DNA of 64,000 nt from Betaproteobacteria bacterium HGW-Betaproteobacteria-1 (GTDB lineage Bacteria > Pseudomonadota > Gammaproteobacteria > Burkholderiales > Methylophilaceae), in contig PHCX01000004.1 of the NCBI GenBank assembly GCA_002842435.1, positions 180,209 to 244,208 on the forward strand, written 5' to 3'. Below, in pieces: positions 18,690-29,585 of this stretch (positions are counted from its first letter, which is position 1; the number at the start of each line of letters is the position of its first letter). The notes under the pieces were generated by a model. That model searched no databases and was not told the origin of the DNA. It saw only the letters and a program-made list of their open reading frames with translations. The position numbers and the translations under genes are program-made.

Positions 18690-20093
18690 TCAGTTCCTAG
18701 CGATAAGCTGCTGGTTGACTTCGGCCAGGTCGGCTTCGGTCAGTATGCCGCTGGCGAACTTGAGGCGCACCGTGCTGATCAGGTAGTTATAGCGCGCCTG
18801 CAACAGGTCGCGTTTGGCCGTGAAGAACTGTTGTTGCGCGTTGAGCACGTCGACGCTGGTGCGCACGCCGACCTCATAGCCCAGATTGGTCGAATCCAGC
18901 TGGCTCTGGCTGGAAAGCAGTGCCTGTTCGTAGGCCCTGATCTGCGCGACGCCGCTGCTGACATCCAGGTAGGCCTGCCGCGTTTCGAGGTCGGCCTGTC
19001 GTCTGGCGACTTCCATGTCTTCCTGCGCCTTTTGCAGATTGGCGGCTGCCTCGCGTACGCGCGAACTGACAGCCCCCCCCTGATAGATGGGGATCGCCAG
19101 CTGCAGGCCGACGGTGAGGTCTTCCAGGTCGGAAGCAAAGCCGCTGGCGCTGCCGTTGTTGCGGTTGTCGCTGTAGCGGGCAACGGCGTCGAGTGTCGGC
19201 ATGTGGCCGGCGCGCATGCGCTCGACCTCGCGATTGGCGATCTGGAAATTGTGCTGCTGGATGGCCAGCGCCAGGCTGTTCTGCTCCGCCAGGTCAACCC
19301 AGGCTTGCATATCGGTTGGTTCTGGTATCTGCGGATTGAGGTCTTCGCGCACGGTGGCGAGGTTTTGCGGCATCTTGCCAATGATGGACTGCAACGCGCG
19401 CTTCTTGATTTCCAGCTGGTTGATGGCAGCGATTTCCTGCGCCGTGGTCAGGTCGAAACGCGCCTGTGCTTCGTTGACATCGGTGATGGTGGCGGTACCC
19501 ACCTCGAAATTGGCCTTGGCTTGTTCCAGTTGGTTGCTGATGGCGGATTTCTGCGCGTTGATCAGCTCGATGCTGTCCTGCGCCAGCAGGACGTCGAAAT
19601 AGGCTTGCGTCACGCGCAGCATGAGGTTTTGCCGGTCCAGCATCAGCTGGCGGTCAGCCTGAGAGACGATCAGTTTGGATTGCTGGTACTGGACGAAATT
19701 ATCGCGGCGGAACAAGGGCTGCGTGACATTGAGGCTATAGCCCCAGCTATCGAAACGTTCGCTACCGCTGCCGCCGATCGGATTGCCGCGGGCGTCGATG
19801 CCGCTGCCGTTGAGATCGCGGTCGAGAGTGGTGCGGGATTCGCTGACATCGCTGTTCAGCGTGACAGTGGGCCGGTATAGCGCCTTGCCTTGTTCCAGTT
19901 TTTCCTGCGCGGCAAGATTGGCGCTGCGCGAAGAGGCCCAGGAAGGGTCCTGGCTCAGCGCGTTCTGATAGATGGCCATCAGGTCCTGGGTGGCTGTATC
20001 GTCTGCCTGTGCCGGCATGCCGGCGAATAACATCACGAATACGAATATCAGTGCTGACAGGGATTGATTTTTTGCAGCCATTTTTGCAGGCAT
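18690..20093 (-). CDS. tolC: TolC outer-membrane channel
   Basis: Signal peptide, FEVGTATITDVNEAQARFD, YEVGVRTSVDVLNAQQQ; downstream of pcm. Confidence 0.92.
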   Translation of the reverse strand: MPAKMAAKNQSLSALIFVFVMLFAGMPAQADDTATQDLMAIYQNALSQDPSWASSRSANLAAQEKLEQGKALYRPTVTLNSDVSESRTTLDRDLNGSGIDARGNPIGGSGSERFDSWGYSLNVTQPLFRRDNFVQYQQSKLIVSQADRQLMLDRQNLMLRVTQAYFDVLLAQDSIELINAQKSAISNQLEQAKANFEVGTATITDVNEAQARFDLTTAQEIAAINQLEIKKRALQSIIGKMPQNLATVREDLNPQIPEPTDMQAWVDLAEQNSLALAIQQHNFQIANREVERMRAGHMPTLDAVARYSDNRNNGSASGFASDLEDLTVGLQLAIPIYQGGAVSSRVREAAANLQKAQEDMEVARRQADLETRQAYLDVSSGVAQIRAYEQALLSSQSQLDSTNLGYEVGVRTSVDVLNAQQQFFTAKRDLLQARYNYLISTVRLKFASGILTEADLAEVNQQLIARN

Positions 20094-20100
20094 GAAAACC

Positions 20101-20778
20101 TTAAAATTGAAAACGTTCTGGTTGCGGAGCGTTGTTCAGGGGCGGTATGCAGGTCTCGAAGATGACGTCATGCTTGAAACTGTTTTCGCTGATGCGGCGG
20201 ATCATGGTCGCCTGCATCGCAGGTGCATCACCAGTGACAACGAACATACGACCACCGATGGTGAGACTTTGTTTCACGCTTTCCGGGCTGACGGGCAGGG
20301 AGCCGGTAAATACGATGACATCATAGGGTGCTTGGGCCGGCCAGCCTTCGGCGGCATCGCCGACTTCCAGCGTCACATTGCTGATGCCGGACTTGGTCAG
20401 GCGTTCCCCGGCGATCTTGCTCAGTGAAGCAATCAGTTCAACGCTGACCACTTCCCTGGCGGATTTGGCCAGCAGGGCGGTGAGGTAGCCGCTGCCAGTA
20501 CCGATTTCCAGCACCTTGTCGGTATTCCTGATTTCCAGTGCCTGCAGAATGCGGCCTTCCAGTTTGGGTGAGAGCATGCTCTGGCCTTCACTGATGGGGA
20601 TTTCGATGTCGGCAAATGCCAGACCTGCATACTGCGGCGGTACGAAGTCCTCGCGCGGCACTGCTTTCAACAGATCCAGCACCTTGGTATCCAGCACCTC
20701 CCAAGTGCGGATCTGCTGTTCGATCATGTTGAAGCGGGCTTGCTCGCGGCTGTTGGTTTGAGCTGGGTCGGTTTGCAT
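20101..20778 (-). CDS. pcm: Protein-L-isoaspartate O-methyltransferase
   Basis: ARFNMIEQQIR, VPREDFVP, VLEIGTGSGY, APYDVI; start ATG 20778 chosen, TTG 20811 is the alternative. Confidence 0.9.
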   Translation of the reverse strand: MQTDPAQTNSREQARFNMIEQQIRTWEVLDTKVLDLLKAVPREDFVPPQYAGLAFADIEIPISEGQSMLSPKLEGRILQALEIRNTDKVLEIGTGSGYLTALLAKSAREVVSVELIASLSKIAGERLTKSGISNVTLEVGDAAEGWPAQAPYDVIVFTGSLPVSPESVKQSLTIGGRMFVVTGDAPAMQATMIRRISENSFKHDVIFETCIPPLNNAPQPERFQF

Positions 20779-20840
20779 GATGTTGTCTGGACTGAAATTG
20801 AGATCATTCAATTATAGCCCAAGCCTGCGGAAATTGACGG

Positions 20841-22225
<1,385 letters not shown>

Positions 22226-22229
<4 letters not shown>

Positions 22230-23902
22230 GATGCTTCCTTCAGGTTCGGTAGTCGCAGGCGGAATTCTGCACCCTGCATGGGGCTGACGCCAACATTGAT
22301 TTCGCCGTGATGCGCGGCAACGATCTGGCGCACGACGGCCAGACCGAGGCCGAGACCGCCGCTGCGTTTGGTGTAGAAGGGGTCGAACACTTGATCGCGC
22401 TGATCAGCCGGGATGCCCGGGCCGTTGTCTGCGACACGGACTTCAACGGCATTTTTCAGCTGCTGCACGCTGACCTGGATCTTGCCGCCTTCGGGCAGTA
22501 TCTGAATCGAGTTCAGCAGCAGGTTGAGCAGCACCTGCATGATCTGTTCATGGTCGCATTCTGCCATCGCTACGCCCTCAGCGTTGCAGTCGAGCTCTAT
22601 GCTTTTCTTGTCGGCCTGCGCGCGCAACATGCCAACCGCCTGCCGCGTCAGTTCGGCAATGTCCGTGGGAGCGAATTCCGGCTGGCGTGGTCGCGCCGTA
22701 TCGATCAGTGTGGAAACCAGTTTGTTCAGGCGCTCCGTCTCCGAGATGATGAATCCGCAGACCTCGCGCCCTTCCTTGCTCAATTCCGGTTCGCGCAGCA
22801 ACACCTGGGCGGAAGAGCGCAGGATGCCGAGCGGGGTGCGTACCTCATGGCTCATGGCGGCGGCCATCTCGCCGACGACCGCCAGCTTGGCGGCACGGGT
22901 CAGGTGTTCCTTGGAGCGCTCCAGGTCTTCGATCATCTGCGCAAAGGCTTGGGACATGGCGTCGATCTCAGCCGGGCCGCCGGCAGGGGGGCGCAGATTG
23001 CTCGGTGAGCGGATGAAGCGATTGGCGAAATCGGTCAGTTTCAGCAAGGGGCCGCTGATGGTGCGGGCTACCGGGATGGCGATGAAGCTGGCAAGCAGGA
23101 TGGTGATGACCAGCAGGCCGATAAAGATAAGTCCCATGCGCCGGATCGGTTCAAGTGCCTCATCGCGATGCTGTGAAAAGGTGACGCGCCAGACGCTGTT
23201 GGTTAAGCCCTGAAAGCCCTGAATGTTTGCAGTGGCCGAGATTCTGGCCTTGACTGTGTTTTGCCAGTGTGTGGTCGCGGCGATGGTCTGTCCCTGTTCG
23301 TCCAGCAGGGCGGCGGATGTGCGCCCGGAAACGGCACCGCTTAGAATATCCTCGACTTCGGACCAGCTGAATTCCGCCACCAGAATCCCGATCGGTTGCT
23401 CTTCTATCGTGTCGAAGATGACGCTGCTCATCTGCATGACGCCCTGCGATGGGGGTGTGAAATGCACATGGCCACCGGCGATGGTGACTTCCAGCCACTG
23501 CGGATCCAGCTTCAGTTCCGAGCCGAGCAAGGCTGCATTGCTTGAGGCGATGATGCGGCCGTTACTGTCAATCACGTACAGGCCGCGATAGACGCGCTGA
23601 TAGCTGGTTTTCAGTTCGGAAAGAAAGCGTGAAAGGCGTTTGTCGACATCGCCGATGCGAGCATCCTGCATCACTTCCAGTTTGTGCCAGGAGGCGATGT
23701 TTTGCAGGCGTTCGAACATCATGCGGTCTATGTCGTCGGCCGTTGCATGCGCGCGGGTTTCCAGATCGTGCTGGATCTCGGTCTTGAGTGCGGTGCGTGC
23801 CTCGTAGAATGCCAGCCCGGTAATCAGTGTCGTCGGCAGCAGGCTGGTGAGCAGGAAAGCGCCCAGAAGCAGATAGCGTATAGGCAGGGTGCTCAGCTGC
23901 AT
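22226..23902 (-). CDS. Membrane sensor histidine kinase (periplasmic Cache-like domain, HAMP)
   Basis: Two TMs, HAMP, H-box SHEVRTPL, NLLLNS, DNGPGIP, FDPFYT, GLGLGL; ATGA overlap with the regulator. Confidence 0.94.
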
Positions 23903-23928
23903 GTGTGAGTCAGAATAATGAGGGTGTG

Positions 23929-23944
23929 TGGCATGGCATTTGCA
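23929..23944 (+). promoter_or_regulatory. Sigma54 -24/-12 promoter of the porin-periplasmic protein pair
   Basis: TGGCATGGCATTTGCA: GG(23930-31)-N10-GC(23942-43). Confidence 0.8.
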
Positions 23945-24015
23945 ATGAATTCGGACTTATTGGATTGAACAAGATTAGAATGTCCGCCAAAACATGGCAA
24001 GAACATGGTGAAAAT

Positions 24016-25059
24016 ATGATGACATCGAATCGAAAGGTATGCGCAGCTATCTGGCTATCGGTTTGCTATTTTTGCATTCCGGTGCAGGCGTTACACGCCG
24101 CAGAGGAGGCGGTAGCCGAGCCGATGGAGCAGCTGGCAGAGGGTCCGGCCAGTGTCTGGGATGGCTTCAATCTGGGTGGCTACGGCAGTGCCGGGATTAT
24201 CGTGCCACGGCACGAGAAAACCGAGATCGCCGTCAATGAAATCAGTTTGATCATCACCTGGGATGGCGACAGCCGTTTCAAATTCTTCTCCGAACTGGAA
24301 CTGGAACATCCGCTGATCTGGCGTGAGGGCGATGATTTTTCCAAGCAGAAATCCTTTCTCGATATCGAGCGCCTGTATCTGGATTACAACCTCAACGAGA
24401 AACTCAATCTGCGCGCAGGCCGTTATCTGACCCCGGCCGGTCGCTGGAACCTGATCCATGCCTCGCCGCTGGTCTGGACCTCATCCCGGCCGCTGGCTAC
24501 CAGCCGTCTGTTCCCCACGGCGCTCAACGGCGTCATGCTGTACGGCGCCATTCCCTACAAGGAAGCGGCTTTCGAATACATGCTGTTCGGCGAACTGCTG
24601 AAGGATCAGGATCTTGAGCGCGACGAGATCGACTTCCGCGATACCTTTGGTGCGCGTTTCACACTGAGCGGCAGGACGGAGTGGGGCTTGTCGCTGCTGG
24701 AATTCTCCGAACGAGATGTCGGTCGGCGGCGCTATCAGATGCTGGGGCTGGATTTTCAGCACAAGCAGCATGGATGGGAATGGAGCGGCGAGGCTTTCCA
24801 GCGTTTTCGCAATGACGGCAAGGATGGCGGTCATGGCGCCTATCTGCAGGCAGTGGCGCCGCTCACCGGGCACTGGTTTGCCATCGCCCGGCTGGAGAAT
24901 TTCAGGCGGCCGACAGAATCGTCGGTTGATCGCTGGCTGATAGGCACGGCTTGGCGTCCTGTCCCCAATCGCATCTTCAAGATGGAATATGTGGGGGGCG
25001 ATGAGCAACGCGAAGACTCGCCCAAGGGCTTTCTTGCCTCATTTGCAATCCTGTTCTGA
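24016..25059 (+). CDS. Outer-membrane beta-barrel (porin-like) protein
   Basis: Signal peptide ending ALHA/AE, alternating beta strands, C-terminal FAILF; start moved to ATG 24016, downstream of the sigma54 promoter. Confidence 0.75.
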   Translation: MMTSNRKVCAAIWLSVCYFCIPVQALHAAEEAVAEPMEQLAEGPASVWDGFNLGGYGSAGIIVPRHEKTEIAVNEISLIITWDGDSRFKFFSELELEHPLIWREGDDFSKQKSFLDIERLYLDYNLNEKLNLRAGRYLTPAGRWNLIHASPLVWTSSRPLATSRLFPTALNGVMLYGAIPYKEAAFEYMLFGELLKDQDLERDEIDFRDTFGARFTLSGRTEWGLSLLEFSERDVGRRRYQMLGLDFQHKQHGWEWSGEAFQRFRNDGKDGGHGAYLQAVAPLTGHWFAIARLENFRRPTESSVDRWLIGTAWRPVPNRIFKMEYVGGDEQREDSPKGFLASFAILF

Positions 25060-25550
25060 TGCCGACGATGTTGAATTTGCGCGTGTTGCTGTTACTGCTT
25101 GGCTTGAGCCTGCTACCGGCTGCGCCGGCACATGCGGCGGAGTCCGAGGTGCTGGCCATCATCGTGCCGGCGAATCTGGCCGTGAAGCGGCTTAGTGCTT
25201 CCGAGCTCAGTCTGATTTTTCTGCGCAAGAAACTCTATTGGCCCAACGGCAAGCGTATGCGGCCGGCCAATCTGCCGACACAACATGATCTGCGCCAGCG
25301 TTTTTCGTTGCGCGTGCTGGGCAGTCTGCCGGAAACGCAGGCGGAATACTGGAACGAGCAATACTTCCACGGCGTGTCGCCGCCACATGTGGTGAATTCG
25401 CAGGAAGCGATGCTGCGTTATGTCGCCGACACCGCCGGTGCCATCGGCTATGTTGATGCCTGTGCTGTTGATAGCCGGGTCAGGGTCGTGGCCTGGATTG
25501 ATTCTGACGGTAGTTGGCTGGCATCCCCGCCGCCGCTGGCCTGCGATTAA
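25059..25550 (+). CDS. Small periplasmic protein, phosphate-binding-protein-like
   Basis: Signal peptide AHA/AE, LAIIVP, IFLRKKLYW, YWNEQYFHG, MLRYVADTAGAIGYV; 1-bp overlap with the porin gene. Confidence 0.7.
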   Translation: MPTMLNLRVLLLLLGLSLLPAAPAHAAESEVLAIIVPANLAVKRLSASELSLIFLRKKLYWPNGKRMRPANLPTQHDLRQRFSLRVLGSLPETQAEYWNEQYFHGVSPPHVVNSQEAMLRYVADTAGAIGYVDACAVDSRVRVVAWIDSDGSWLASPPPLACD

Positions 25551-25614
25551 GCCTGCAAAATTGGTAAGGTCATACGAAATTTGCAGGGTATTGGCCTGCA
25601 AATTTCGTATGACC
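25551..25614. promoter_or_regulatory. Candidate enhancer (UAS): perfect 20-bp inverted repeat plus a third degenerate copy
   Basis: GGTCATACGAAATTTGCAGG (25568-87) / CCTGCAAATTTCGTATGACC (25595-614); extra gcctgcaaaattggtaa at 25551-67; about 140 bp upstream of a sigma54 promoter. Could also act as a terminator hairpin. Confidence 0.65.
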
Positions 25615-25751
25615 GACCGTCAAATCCCTTTCTTCTGGTTCCATATCACTCCGGATTACTCCGAAAATTTACCTGAATATTGTTATATATAATTGATTAT
25701 AAAAGTTAAATAATATTTACCGTGTGACATTTGAGTGACAGCGGCAAGTGT

Positions 25752-25767
25752 TGGCATGGCGCTTGCG
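25752..25767 (+). promoter_or_regulatory. Sigma54 -24/-12 promoter of the 11-gene operon
   Basis: TGGCATGGCGCTTGCG: GG(25753-54)-N10-GC(25765-66); preceded by a very AT-rich stretch (about 25675-25720). Confidence 0.85.
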
Positions 25768-25802
25768 CACTATTCAGGTATTCAAATCTGGAGTACCTGA
25801 AT

Positions 25803-26543
25803 ATGTTGCCGGAAACCATGCCAATCGCGTCTGAAGCCAATGATGAATTGCAGCCGGACCAAGTAGAAAATCCATGCGCTGCAAATCCTGGCACTGCGAC
25901 AGGAAGCATCGCTGATGACCTGCATCGCTATTTCAGCCACAGACGTCTCACGGCACAAATACACCTGCATTCCGCGGAAAACGTGCATACCTCCATCTCG
26001 GGTCCCGAGGCAGAGGACAGGGCGGAGCTGGAGCAGTTTGTCCACCGCATTTTCTCCAAGGCTTATGATGCCAACGTCAAGGAGTTCATGCCGCAACTGA
26101 TGAGCCTGCGCAATGCCGGCGGTGAGTTGCTGGCCGTGTGTGGCTTGCGTCACGCCGAAAACAACAGCCTGTTCCTCGAGCGCTACCTGCCACAGCCGGT
26201 GGAGCATGTGATTTCAGCACAAAGCGGCCAGCTGGTGGTGCGCAATGACATCGTCGAGATCGGTAATCTGGCCGTTGCCCATCCGGAAACGGTACGCAGC
26301 CTGCTGGCGAGTATCAGCCTTTATCTGCATGGCACCAGTACCACATGGGGCGTGTTTACCGGTATCCCCAGCCTGCGCAACGCGCTGAGCAAGCTCAATA
26401 TGCATCTGTTGCCGTTGGGTTGGGCCAGTCTGGCGCACCTGGCGGAAAACGAGCGGGCGGACTGGGGCCGTTATTACGACGAGAAGCCGCAAGTGATGGC
26501 GGTCAAACGACTTTCCCCACCGGTCTGCACGAGCGCTGCATGA
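25803..26543 (+). CDS. Thermostable-hemolysin-family protein, probable GNAT-fold acyltransferase
   Basis: AYDANVKEFMPQL, CGLRHAENNSLFLERYL, IVEIGNLA, ADWGRYYDEKPQV; no signal peptide; start ATG 25803 with GGAG SD. Confidence 0.8.
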   Translation: MLPETMPIASEANDELQPDQVENPCAANPGTATGSIADDLHRYFSHRRLTAQIHLHSAENVHTSISGPEAEDRAELEQFVHRIFSKAYDANVKEFMPQLMSLRNAGGELLAVCGLRHAENNSLFLERYLPQPVEHVISAQSGQLVVRNDIVEIGNLAVAHPETVRSLLASISLYLHGTSTTWGVFTGIPSLRNALSKLNMHLLPLGWASLAHLAENERADWGRYYDEKPQVMAVKRLSPPVCTSAA

Positions 26544-28087
26544 TGGCATCGCGTATCCTGCGGGCCATCAAAGGCCATGCGTCTCAGCATCCTGATCGCG
26601 TCGCCTTGCAAGGCGGTAATGCGACCTTGAGCTATGCTGAACTGGTTTACGAGGTCGATCGCATGCGGCGGCACTTCTTTGTCGATGGCGCACGCGTTTT
26701 GGGCCTGGTGGCAGACAACAGCCTTGCCTGGGCCGTCACCGACCTGGCGGCAATGGCGTCCGAACTCCCCATCGTGCCATTGCCCGCCTTTTTTTCAGCA
26801 GAGCAGCTGGCGCATGCCGTTCGTGATGCCGGCATCAATCAGTTGATCACCGACCAGCCCGTTGTCATGGAACATTTGCTGCAGGGCGCCGGCTTCAGTA
26901 TCAGGGCCTCGCAACAGTACGAGCTTGCCGGGCGCCGGCTGACGCAGTTCACGCTGGCTGATGTAGAGGCGGTGAAGCTGCCGCAGGCAACCGTGAAAAT
27001 CACCTACACCTCGGGCACAACAGGTAATCCAAAGGGCGTCTGTCTCGGCCTGCAGGCGCTTGAAGAAGTCGCCGATAGCCTGCTGACAGCGACGCGTGCG
27101 AATGAAAACGATGTGCACCTCAGCGTGCTGCCGCTTTCAACCCTGCTGGAAAACATCGCGGGTCTTTATGTGCCATTGCTGGCCGGCGCACGCGCGGTGA
27201 TCCGGCCCTGTCAGGAAGTTGGCTTGAGCGGCGCCAGCGGACTAGATCCGCAAAAGATGTTGCAGGCCATGCTGCTGGCGAAAGCCAGCACGCTGGTGCT
27301 GACGCCGGAACTGCTGAAGGCCTTGGTGATGATGGCGGAAGCCGGTGCGCCGGTGCCTGACAGCCTGCGTTTCGTCGCCGTCGGCGGCGCGACCGTTTCC
27401 CATGCCCTGCTCGAGCGCGCAGAGCGTGCCGGGCTGCCGGTATTCGAGGGTTATGGCTTGTCCGAATGCTGTTCCGTGGTTGCCGTCAACACACCGCAGG
27501 CCCGTCTGCAGGGCAGTGTCGGCAAGCCGTTGCCGCATGTGCAACTGCGCTTCGCCGAAGACGGAGAGATCATGGTTGCCGGCAGCATCATGCTGGGTTA
27601 CACCGGTGCGGCCCAAACGGACACAGACCAAGCGGAACAGGAGGCGAAAGGTAACAGCTTCTGGCCTACCGGCGACATCGGCTATCTGGATGATGCCGGC
27701 TATCTGCATATCAGCGGGCGCAAGCGCAATGTGTTTATCACCTCCTTCGGCCGCAACGTCTCTCCTGAGTGGGTCGAAAGCCAGCTCGCGCAATCGCCGA
27801 AGATCGCGCAAGCCGCACTGTTTGGCGAAGCCCGGCCATGGAACACTGCGCTGATCGTGCCGGCAGCCGGCGCCAGCGATGCGGATATCGAACAGGTCGT
27901 CAGCCAGGTCAACGCCGGATTGCCGGATTACGCACGCGTCGGCCGCTGGCTTTACGCCGATGCGCCATTCAGTAGCCAGAACCGGCAGTTGACCCCCAAT
28001 TTCAGGCTGCGCCGCGATGTGATATGGCAGGCCTATGCTCCAAGAATCAATACTTTGTATGAGGAAATCGATAATGTCTGTGTATGA
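26540..28087 (+). CDS. AMP-binding (ANL) ligase, long-chain acyl-CoA synthetase-like
   Basis: TYTSGTTGNPKGV, EGYGLSE, TGDIG, ISGRKRN; ATGA overlap with the previous gene. Confidence 0.92.
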   Translation: MMASRILRAIKGHASQHPDRVALQGGNATLSYAELVYEVDRMRRHFFVDGARVLGLVADNSLAWAVTDLAAMASELPIVPLPAFFSAEQLAHAVRDAGINQLITDQPVVMEHLLQGAGFSIRASQQYELAGRRLTQFTLADVEAVKLPQATVKITYTSGTTGNPKGVCLGLQALEEVADSLLTATRANENDVHLSVLPLSTLLENIAGLYVPLLAGARAVIRPCQEVGLSGASGLDPQKMLQAMLLAKASTLVLTPELLKALVMMAEAGAPVPDSLRFVAVGGATVSHALLERAERAGLPVFEGYGLSECCSVVAVNTPQARLQGSVGKPLPHVQLRFAEDGEIMVAGSIMLGYTGAAQTDTDQAEQEAKGNSFWPTGDIGYLDDAGYLHISGRKRNVFITSFGRNVSPEWVESQLAQSPKIAQAALFGEARPWNTALIVPAAGASDADIEQVVSQVNAGLPDYARVGRWLYADAPFSSQNRQLTPNFRLRRDVIWQAYAPRINTLYEEIDNVCV

Positions 28088-28754
28088 AAAACTGCTTGCT
28101 GCCACCGTTCAGGAACGTGAATCGCTGCTCAGTCTGCCTCTGCTGCGTGCAGGGGTCGCCGGTCAGGTCAGCCTGGAAGCCTATATTGCCTTTCTGACCG
28201 AGGCCTATCACCACGTCAAGCACACCACGCCCTTGCTGATGGCCTGCGGCGGCCGCCTGCCGGAGCGTTATGAGTGGCTGCGCGAAGGCATGGCCGAGTA
28301 TATCGAGGAAGAACTGGGCCATCAGGAATGGATATTGAACGATATCACCGCCTGCGGCGGAGATGCCGAAGCCGTGCGCCGTGGCAAACCGGGGCAGGCG
28401 ACCGAACTGATGGTGGCCTATGCCTATGACATGGTGTATCGCGTCAATCCGGTCGGGTTCCTCGGCATGGTGCTGGTGCTGGAAGGCACCAGTACGGCCA
28501 TGGCAACGCAGGCCGGTGCCGCTATCCAGCAAAGCCTGGGTCTGGGCAAGCAGGCGTTCACTTACCTTACGTCACACGGTTCACTGGATATCAGCCACGT
28601 TGCTTTCTATGAAACCCTGGCAAACCGTATTGAAGATCCTGCAGACCAGCAGATGGTGATAGACAGCGCCAAGATGTTCTACAAGCTTTATGGCGACATT
28701 TTCCGCGACCTGGGGCAACGTTTTCTGCCCGCTGAGATGCTGGAGGCGGCATGA
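28074..28754 (+). CDS. Heme-oxygenase-like/TenA-fold diiron redox enzyme (HDO family)
   Basis: YHHVKH, EEELGH, VLEG, HGSLDISH (H-x3-D-x2-H); GAGGA SD. Confidence 0.85.
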   Translation: MSVYEKLLAATVQERESLLSLPLLRAGVAGQVSLEAYIAFLTEAYHHVKHTTPLLMACGGRLPERYEWLREGMAEYIEEELGHQEWILNDITACGGDAEAVRRGKPGQATELMVAYAYDMVYRVNPVGFLGMVLVLEGTSTAMATQAGAAIQQSLGLGKQAFTYLTSHGSLDISHVAFYETLANRIEDPADQQMVIDSAKMFYKLYGDIFRDLGQRFLPAEMLEAA

Positions 28755-29566
28755 ATCTGGCCGGCAAAAGAGTCCTGCTGACCGGCGCTACCGGCGGCAT
28801 CGGTCGTCATCTGGCGTTGCAGTTGGCGTCAGAAGGTGCCGAGTTGGCCTTGGTTTGTTATGACGCGCAAAAACTCAACGCCCTGACTGATGTGATTTCG
28901 TCCCGCGGCGGCAAGGCCAGTATCATCGTCGCCGATTTCAACCACGCACATGCCGCGCAAGGCGTCGCCGATGCAGCGAAGCTGAAGATGGGCGGTGTCG
29001 ATGTGCTGGTCAACAATGCGGGCATCCTCGATTTCGTGCAGTTTGCCGAACAGGACCCGCAACGCATCGCCCAGATGATCCAGGTCAACCTGACCGTTCC
29101 CTTGCAGCTGACACGCGCATTGCTGCCGGATTTCATCGCGCGCAATAGCGGCCAGATCGTCAATATCGGCTCCATTTTCGGTTCCATCGGTTTTCCGCAT
29201 TACGCCAGCTACAGCGCGACCAAGTTCGCCATGCGCGGATTTTCGCAGGCCCTGCGCCGCGAACTGGCCGGTCATGATATCGCCGTCACCTATGTCGCGC
29301 CGCGTGCGGTGAAGACGCCGATCAACGACGCGGTTGCCACCGAGATGTTCAAGGCGACCGGCACCAATCTGGATGAACCGGAGTTTGTCGCCGAAAAGAT
29401 TCTGCAGGCCATGATTCGCGGCAATCGCGACAGCTACATCGGCCAGCCGGAATCGATTTTTGCCTGGCTCAATGGCTTTTTGCCAAGCCTGGTCAGTATG
29501 GGTCTGAAAAAGCAGACCGAGATCGCCCGGCCTTATGCAAGCCGTTCTCAAACCGCACCCAAGTAA
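28751..29566 (+). CDS. Short-chain dehydrogenase/reductase
   Basis: TGATGGIG, NNAG, VNIGS, YSATK. Confidence 0.95.
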   Translation: MNLAGKRVLLTGATGGIGRHLALQLASEGAELALVCYDAQKLNALTDVISSRGGKASIIVADFNHAHAAQGVADAAKLKMGGVDVLVNNAGILDFVQFAEQDPQRIAQMIQVNLTVPLQLTRALLPDFIARNSGQIVNIGSIFGSIGFPHYASYSATKFAMRGFSQALRRELAGHDIAVTYVAPRAVKTPINDAVATEMFKATGTNLDEPEFVAEKILQAMIRGNRDSYIGQPESIFAWLNGFLPSLVSMGLKKQTEIARPYASRSQTAPK

Positions 29567-29585
29567 ACCTGGAGGAGATACCACC

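Follow-up and report, generated by a model that had tools for sequence, protein, structure and literature searches.

We analysed a 64,000-nt window, the whole stretch referred to as such below, from the genome of Betaproteobacteria bacterium HGW-Betaproteobacteria-1, a member of the Methylophilaceae (contig PHCX01000004.1, positions 180,209 to 244,208 of the forward strand; coordinates are those of the window unless another contig is named). The subject is a candidate sigma-54 circuit consisting of an AtoC-like response regulator gene, a sensor kinase gene, two -24/-12 promoter elements (P1 and P2), a set of repeated motif copies and a biosynthetic operon. The repeats and P2 lie within a 252-bp intergenic region after the stop codon at 25550, directly upstream of the operon. 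Judged by sequence comparison, P2 is very probably the sigma-54 promoter of this operon, with three motif copies as predicted dimer sites for the AtoC-like regulator, which is encoded about 3.3 kb upstream on the opposite strand. The locus contains the following features.

20841-22229, minus strand: sigma-54 activator (bacterial enhancer-binding protein, bEBP) and response regulator, AtoC-like (Pfam Response_reg, Sigma54_activat with 9e-71, AAA_lid_14, HTH_8)
22226-23902, minus strand: sensor histidine kinase with dCache-HAMP-HisKA-HATPase domains (Pfam); 4-nt overlap with the regulator gene
23929-23944, plus strand: P1, -24/-12 element TGGCATGGCATTTGCA, 16/16 match to the consensus TGGCAYGNNNNTTGCW; faces the 347-aa gene; predicted transcription start site (TSS) at about 23955
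24016-25059, plus strand: 347-aa exported protein, syntenic in all family loci; sub-threshold match to the BBP2 porin family (E 0.3)
25059-25550, plus strand: 163-aa exported protein, without a Pfam or NCBIfam family or a PDB relative
25552-25568, plus strand: predicted enhancer site 1, CCTGCAAAATTGGTAAG, centre 25560; position weight matrix (PWM) score 17.6, genome rank 7; kept in four close relatives
25571-25587, minus strand: predicted enhancer site 2, CCTGCAAATTTCGTATG, centre 25579, 19 bp from site 1; PWM score 21.2; 13-bp core invariant in five genus genomes
25595-25611, plus strand: predicted enhancer site 3, CCTGCAAATTTCGTATG, centre 25603, 43 bp from site 1; PWM score 21.2; core invariant in five genus genomes
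25615-25751, no strand: AT-rich spacer, 66% A+T, with a 12/13 match to an integration host factor (IHF) site at 25686-98 on the minus strand
25752-25767, plus strand: P2, -24/-12 element TGGCATGGCGCTTGCG, 15/16 match to TGGCAYGNNNNTTGCW; predicted TSS at about 25778
25803-30254, plus strand: target operon encoding a T_hemolysin-family protein (PF12261), an acyl-AMP ligase, a heme-oxygenase-like diiron enzyme, an SDR and a TPR protein (Pfam)

The probable promoter P2 and its predicted enhancer

The original prediction had placed two promoters at 23929-44 and 25752-67, and both were found there, with 16 and 15 of the 16 consensus positions matched. The GG-N10-GC spacing is exact in P1 and P2, which both lie on the plus strand (pattern TGGCAC-N5-TTGCW). 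The genome encodes rpoN (one Sigma54_DBD gene, 226 bits), and its 2.5 Mb contain nine perfect 16/16 matches to the -24/-12 consensus, P1 included, for a chance expectation that we estimate at about 0.3. Nearly all of the nine precede an open reading frame (ORF).

The three predicted enhancer sites are placed 150-193 bp upstream of the GG of P2, within the range of roughly 80-200 bp expected of a bEBP enhancer, the centre of site 3 lying 24 bp beyond that of site 2; orthologous loci have one to three sites at 60-230 bp. A repeat scan recovered the inverted repeat, the third copy and the 43-bp direct spacing as originally described. The perfect 20-nt inverted repeat (25568-87 and 25595-614, with a 7-nt loop) comprises sites 2 and 3 plus their flanks, and an imperfect inverted pair of 87% identity is formed by 25552-66 and 25573-87. 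When up to one mismatch was allowed, the 15-mer CCTGCAAAWTTSGTA occurred exactly three times in the 2.5-Mb genome, and all three copies are located here. The copies are therefore neither a chance event nor a dispersed repeat of the repetitive extragenic palindrome (REP) or miniature inverted-repeat transposable element (MITE) kind.

Throughout the family the motif is a palindrome, CCTGCAAA-W-TTTGCAGG, with (CC)TGCAAA-N-TTTGCA(GG) as its common form, and a PWM built on 67 sites gave the consensus CCTGCAAAWTTTGCAGG. What had been described as a half-site is thus a complete dimer site, and the 13-17-bp palindrome takes the place of the 20-bp hairpin arm as the functional unit. Spacings of 19, 31-33 and 42-43 bp between sites recur among the orthologues, the last of these in Methylophilus and Methylotenera loci.

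The motif had further been suggested as one that could define the regulon of the adjacent activator, and the genome scan proposed for this purpose was carried out with exact, mismatch-tolerant, core-palindrome, half-site-pair and PWM searches. Genome-wide, the sites of this locus take PWM ranks 2, 3 and 7; no second motif cluster was found in the genome, nor any motif near another -24/-12 element. As the motif forms a single cluster, this operon alone makes up the predicted regulon. The top PWM match, TCTGCATAATTTGCATG, lies outside the window on contig C7 (position 79312, within 79300-79330), inside a tandem TAATTTGCAT repeat that follows a terminator-like hairpin, and no -24/-12 element was found near it.

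Conservation in the Methylophilaceae

Comparison with other Methylophilaceae (Methylovorus, Methylobacillus, Methylotenera and Methylophilus among them; the nearest record is the metagenome-assembled genome (MAG) HGW-Betaproteobacteria-2) showed that, besides the source genome, 17 of the 36 further family genomes searched carry an orthologue of the 163-aa gene. The order of regulator, kinase, 347-aa gene, 163-aa gene and T_hemolysin cassette was the same in all 17 family loci fetched. In 15 of these 17, a -24/-12 element follows 150-233 bp past the stop codon of the 163-aa gene, with one to three motif copies in between. The remaining two genomes carry insertions of 2.9 and 6.1 kb that separate the T_hemolysin operon from the 163-aa gene (L033 8453-11338; L034 8588-14732), and here the motif pair and the -24/-12 element are found immediately 5' of T_hemolysin, not after the 163-aa gene. 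In Methylophilus flavus, the kinase/activator/347-aa/163-aa module is located on a separate contig without motif or -24/-12 element, while the T_hemolysin operon retains both. The module is also present in culturable members of the family, among them Methylovorus mays, Methylobacillus sp. MM3 and Methylophilus medardicus.

A search with the heme-oxygenase-like protein yielded 80 cassette loci from several classes, 74 of which had enough upstream sequence to be scored. Both the -24/-12 element and the motif precede T_hemolysin in 27 of 29 Methylophilaceae-type loci. Neither element was present in 43 of 45 cassette loci of Gallionellaceae, Zetaproteobacteria and Gammaproteobacteria, none of which has a kinase/activator pair adjoining the cassette. 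Whole-genome searches of eight non-family cassette genomes did not detect the 163-aa orthologue in five, and in three only homologues of at most 31% identity. Conversely, of the 13 family genomes without the 163-aa gene, 11 have no cassette either, and the other two are MAGs of 73-85% completeness. As far as comparison of sequences can tell, the regulator module, the motif and the sigma-54 promoter travel together, mostly inside one family.

The same comparison bears on the role of the long inverted repeat, which could be transcribed.

25568-25614, plus strand: perfect 20-bp inverted repeat, may fold as an RNA hairpin where the upstream operon ends; outer stem drifts in relatives

The repeat begins only 18 nt past the stop codon of the 163-aa gene, and its predicted RNA fold of -41.7 kcal/mol is far stabler than expected (z -6.2; none of 200 shuffles was as stable). 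It may thus act mainly as an RNA hairpin, either as terminator or as 3'-end stabiliser of the 347-aa/163-aa transcript, with the motif copies as by-products of the stem; several substitutions in the nearest relative would form G-U wobbles. However, the repeat lacks a T tract (the tail reads GACCGTCAAATCC) and was not flagged by a scan for intrinsic terminators. Motif orientation also varies among the orthologues, and in one genome of the same genus (G002) all three copies are direct, so that the long stem cannot form there. Where insertions or unlinked modules separate the two operons, the motif stays with the T_hemolysin promoter, not with the 3' end of the 163-aa gene. Finally, conservation is limited to the 13-bp cores: those of sites 2 and 3 are without any substitution in the five genus genomes, in which about 20 substitutions have accumulated in the loop, in the CC/GG flanks and at the outer 5-7 positions of the stem, some of them without compensation. 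Invariant cores, changes in orientation and linkage to the T_hemolysin promoter together place the constraint on the protein-binding cores and not on the stem. We therefore consider a hairpin as the main function improbable; in this genus alone, the hairpin may have a secondary role. The original prediction had allowed for a repeat acting only as a terminator, which, according to both the scan and the comparison, is not the conserved function. A search for known RNA families gave only sub-threshold generic hairpin matches.

Relation to AtoC and the proposed circuit

Over its full length, the regulator shares 45% identity with E. coli AtoC, with D55 and the GAFTGA motif aligned, and AtoC is its best NCBIfam model (NF008469). 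The score of 469.9 bits is below the equivalog cut-off of 714, and the Pfam matches of the target operon do not indicate acetoacetate or short-chain fatty acid catabolism, so that the protein is AtoC-like and not assigned as an AtoC orthologue. The verified AtoC target consists of two inverted 20-bp boxes, GCTATGCAGAAATTTGCACA and GCTATGCAGAAAATTGCGCA (PMC3118216). In the E. coli atoC-atoD intergenic region, we found that the boxes begin 14 bp past the atoC stop codon, that 19 bp separate the centres of their TGCA-N6-TGCA cores, and that they are followed by an AT-rich stretch and then by TGGCACTCCCCTTGCT. The locus studied here resembles AtoS/AtoC-atoDAEB in that genes for a kinase and an NtrC-family regulator lie near a sigma-54 operon, and in that inverted, A/T-centred TGCA...TGCA boxes occur just past a stop codon at a centre spacing of 19 bp (here between sites 1 and 2), ahead of an AT-rich spacer and TGGCA-N6-TTGC. 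It differs in the box core (TGCA-N5-TGCA instead of TGCA-N6-TGCA), in the number of sites (three instead of two) and in their distance from the GG (150-193 bp compared to about 94-113 bp in E. coli). Further differences are the dCache sensor of the kinase, a target that is a biosynthetic cassette and not acetoacetate catabolism, and the divergent orientation of the regulator genes, with two genes between them and the target.

Two other systems are comparable. At glnAp2, the paradigm for activation by NtrC through oligomerisation and DNA looping, able to act at a distance, multiple dyad-symmetric sites containing TGCA likewise lie 5' of a -24/-12 promoter. The half-site there is TGCACC, compared to TGCAAA here; spacing, signal and target genes differ as well, and the regulator scores below the cut-offs of the NtrC equivalog models. 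LuxO, an NtrC-family regulator of the sigma-54-dependent qrr promoters, binds TTGCA-W3-TGCAA, also an A/T-centred TGCA palindrome. Its spacer is N3 instead of N5, the LuxO model gives the regulator 374.5 against a cut-off of 800, and no small RNA gene is found downstream here.

As the genome encodes nine bEBPs, the motif might be bound by one of the other eight, or by an unrelated repressor or activator, instead of the adjacent response regulator. The best PWM match of the genome, at C7:79312 and without a -24/-12 element, would fit such a protein. On the other hand, presence of the motif tracks the kinase/activator module across genomes, including the unlinked case; the remaining bEBPs share 41% identity or less with the regulator (41% being the value of its nearest paralogue) and have different helix-turn-helix sequences; and the motif resembles the AtoC box, while this regulator is the AtoC-like one. 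Binding by another regulator is thus highly improbable.

In architecture, this is a canonical textbook sigma-54/bEBP circuit of AtoC type, with an uncharacterised cassette as its predicted target. In such a circuit, the dCache kinase would sense a signal and phosphorylate the regulator at D55, and regulator dimers on the three sites would form an active AAA+ ring. The AT-rich spacer, about 138 bp long, might then bend, either intrinsically or with IHF, to bring the ring to the closed E-sigma54 complex, where ATP hydrolysis would open the promoter. What the analysis shows are the sequence elements, their conservation, their joint occurrence with the regulator module and their similarity to the AtoC system; regulator binding, control by phosphorylation, looping and the identity of the signal are inferred. 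The AT-rich spacer proposed originally was borne out, with a GC content of 0.30-0.34 across 25600-25749 and about 0.55-0.65 in the flanks. On the minus strand it contains the predicted TAATCAA (25693-99), within a 13-mer at 25686-98 that matches WATCAANNNNTTR at 12 of 13 positions; perfect WATCAANNNNTTR matches were seen by eye in the spacers of some distant orthologues, and ihfA is present in the genome. Spacer bending, by IHF or intrinsically, is plausible.

Several observations weigh against this reading of the locus. P2 by itself is a one-mismatch match, of which about three per window are expected by chance; with three found and 3.05 expected from shuffles, the pattern is not enriched in the window at up to one mismatch, and acceptance of P2 therefore relies on its conservation and not on the match alone. 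Within the window sites, the left half is perfect in this genus and the right half is degenerate (TTGGTA, TTCGTA). The sites also contributed 12 of the 67 sequences to the PWM, which slightly inflates their rank. The IHF-like match is at chance level, as 32% of dinucleotide-shuffled spacers score as well, and its core is altered to CTGATTA (TTGAT to CTGAT) in the two nearest relatives; the heptamer is where it was predicted, but its designation as an IHF site is weakened. No enhancer site for P1 was found in the kinase gene or the P1 operon, the best PWM score across 20000-25540 being 11.6, a value reached at 171 positions in the genome. Lastly, because the co-occurrence is largely confined to one family, it represents few independent events. 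Nevertheless, the assignment of P2 and the three sites to the AtoC-like regulator is supported by family-wide conservation, by co-occurrence with the module even where unlinked, and by likeness to the AtoC box. Of the originally proposed circuit of enhancer, spacer and -24/-12 element with an adjacent activator, the part concerning P2 is thus sustained by comparison, while the IHF site and the upstream activating sequence (UAS) of P1 are not.

For the Methylophilaceae, these results would provide an orphan AtoC-like two-component system with a specific and testable cis-element (CCTGCAAA-W-TTTGCAGG) and a single-operon regulon, and link it to a widespread, unstudied cassette around a heme-oxygenase-like diiron enzyme. 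The switch may offer a way to induce the cassette and so to identify what it makes. Its architecture would hardly surprise specialists.

Candidate promoter P1, further elements and neighbouring genes

The designation of P1 and P2 as twin promoters did not survive the comparison, as the two are not equivalent: P2 is conserved family-wide, whereas P1 is restricted to the genus and one other genome (G022), is missing from most other family genera, and lies beside a family-wide sigma-70-like -10 element. This element is part of a second conserved stretch in the kinase/347-aa intergenic region.

23970-24018, plus strand: nearly invariant leader island with the -10-like TAGAAT (23976-81) and the direct repeat AACATGG-N4-AACATGG (23991-24008, 11-bp period)

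The leader island spans 49 nt and reaches the 347-aa start codon. It is nearly unchanged in the five genus genomes, although the intergenic DNA next to it has diverged, and is unique in the genome; in one of the relatives (G007), both repeat units read ACAAGG. As its reading frame is not conserved, the constraint is on DNA or RNA, and the island could be a promoter or operator of the kinase operon, or a leader element. In other family genera (loci L030-L040), an extended -10-like sequence, TGnGAGAAT, TGGGATAAT or TGGCACAAT (also GATAAT and CACAAT), stands where the window has TAGAAT. In the genus of the window, the -10 element lacks the upstream TG and the -24/-12 element is present instead, which, on comparison of the aligned loci, looks like promoter turnover from sigma-70 to sigma-54.

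Two accounts of P1 follow from these data. The 347-aa and 163-aa genes might be read from the sigma-70-type -10 element at 23976-81, with P1 non-working or minor as a sigma-54 promoter and its -24/-12 match incidental or serving another role. This would agree with the family-wide retention of a -10-like element at that position and the lack of the -24/-12 element in most genera, with the M. flavus module, which has no -24/-12 element, and with the motif and PWM scans, which found no enhancer motif near P1. Yet P1 is one of only nine 16/16 matches in the genome, its GGCATGGCxTxTGC island is invariant in the five genus genomes amid flanking intergenic DNA that has diverged beyond recognition, and the -10 element of this genus has lost its TG, with no sigma-70 promoter called by the promoter scan. 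We consequently regard a silent or minor P1 as doubtful and favour, with moderate confidence, the view that P1 is a second sigma-54 promoter, specific to the genus and driving the 347-aa and 163-aa genes.

As activator site for P1, the original prediction had proposed a 10-nt match, TTTTGCAGGC, inside the kinase gene. The match is present at 23700-09, where it encodes the conserved kinase residues ERLQN, and the nearest relatives have CAG in place of CAA within it, yet have kept P1. Because conserved residues are encoded and the synonymous site is not kept although P1 is, the match is a coding coincidence and not a UAS. A PWM match at 24062 (score 11.0) was likewise rejected as UAS, since it decays in near relatives and sits in signal-peptide codons. 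Candidates for the activation of P1 are the distal enhancer 1.6 kb downstream, another bEBP, or no activator site at all. The first of these would have a single enhancer at 25552-25611 serve both promoters, P2 from 150-190 bp upstream and P1, through long-range looping, from a position 1.6 kb downstream, an arrangement we think unlikely. If true, the kinase/activator pair would induce the biosynthetic cassette together with a candidate outer-membrane channel and a small periplasmic protein, maybe as a self-reinforcing signalling or envelope-remodelling loop in which the dCache kinase senses the product or a precursor.

Around P2, a further inverted repeat was observed.

25771-25803, plus strand: 13-nt inverted repeat TATTCAGGTATTC / GAGTACCTGAATA, covering the predicted TSS of P2, the Shine-Dalgarno (SD) sequence (GGAG, 25790-93) and the start codon

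In G007, this repeat shows a compensatory double change (CAGGCA / TGCCTG). It may form a 5'-terminal mRNA hairpin (predicted at -8.9 kcal/mol) or represent a second operator. An SD-sequestering 5' hairpin as a family-wide conserved feature was rejected, since it is seen in some orthologues only. TACCTGAATAT is found a third time 124 bp upstream (25670-25682). Just 5' of the -24 element of P2, there is also a direct repeat, GTGAC-N6-GTGAC, with an 11-bp period (25724-25739), which is kept only in the four closest relatives.

The coding regions of the target operon overlap or nearly abut, and their Pfam matches include T_hemolysin, AMP-binding enzyme, Haem_oxygenas_2 and SDR. For the 347-aa, 163-aa and T_hemolysin-family proteins, searches of Pfam, NCBIfam and PDB gave no relatives beyond the name PF12261; the 347-aa protein is possibly a beta-barrel. 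A literature search found nothing on the cassette, its product or sigma-54 circuits in Methylophilaceae. Cassette order is kept in Gallionellaceae, Zetaproteobacteria (Mariprofundus) and many Gammaproteobacteria (Thiodiazotropha, Methylophaga, Hahella, Zhongshania), without the sigma-54 promoter there (L045-L123). Beyond the TPR gene, a methyltransferase gene (Pfam) and further genes may belong to the operon. The region 30305-37160 contains this methyltransferase and then ORFs whose names are guesses from reading the translations: a 292-aa lipopolysaccharide (LPS)/Kdo-kinase-like protein, two large putative sulfatase-family membrane proteins, a PAP2-like and a cytochrome b561-like protein. These downstream genes hint that the region as a whole deals with envelope lipid or LPS modification.

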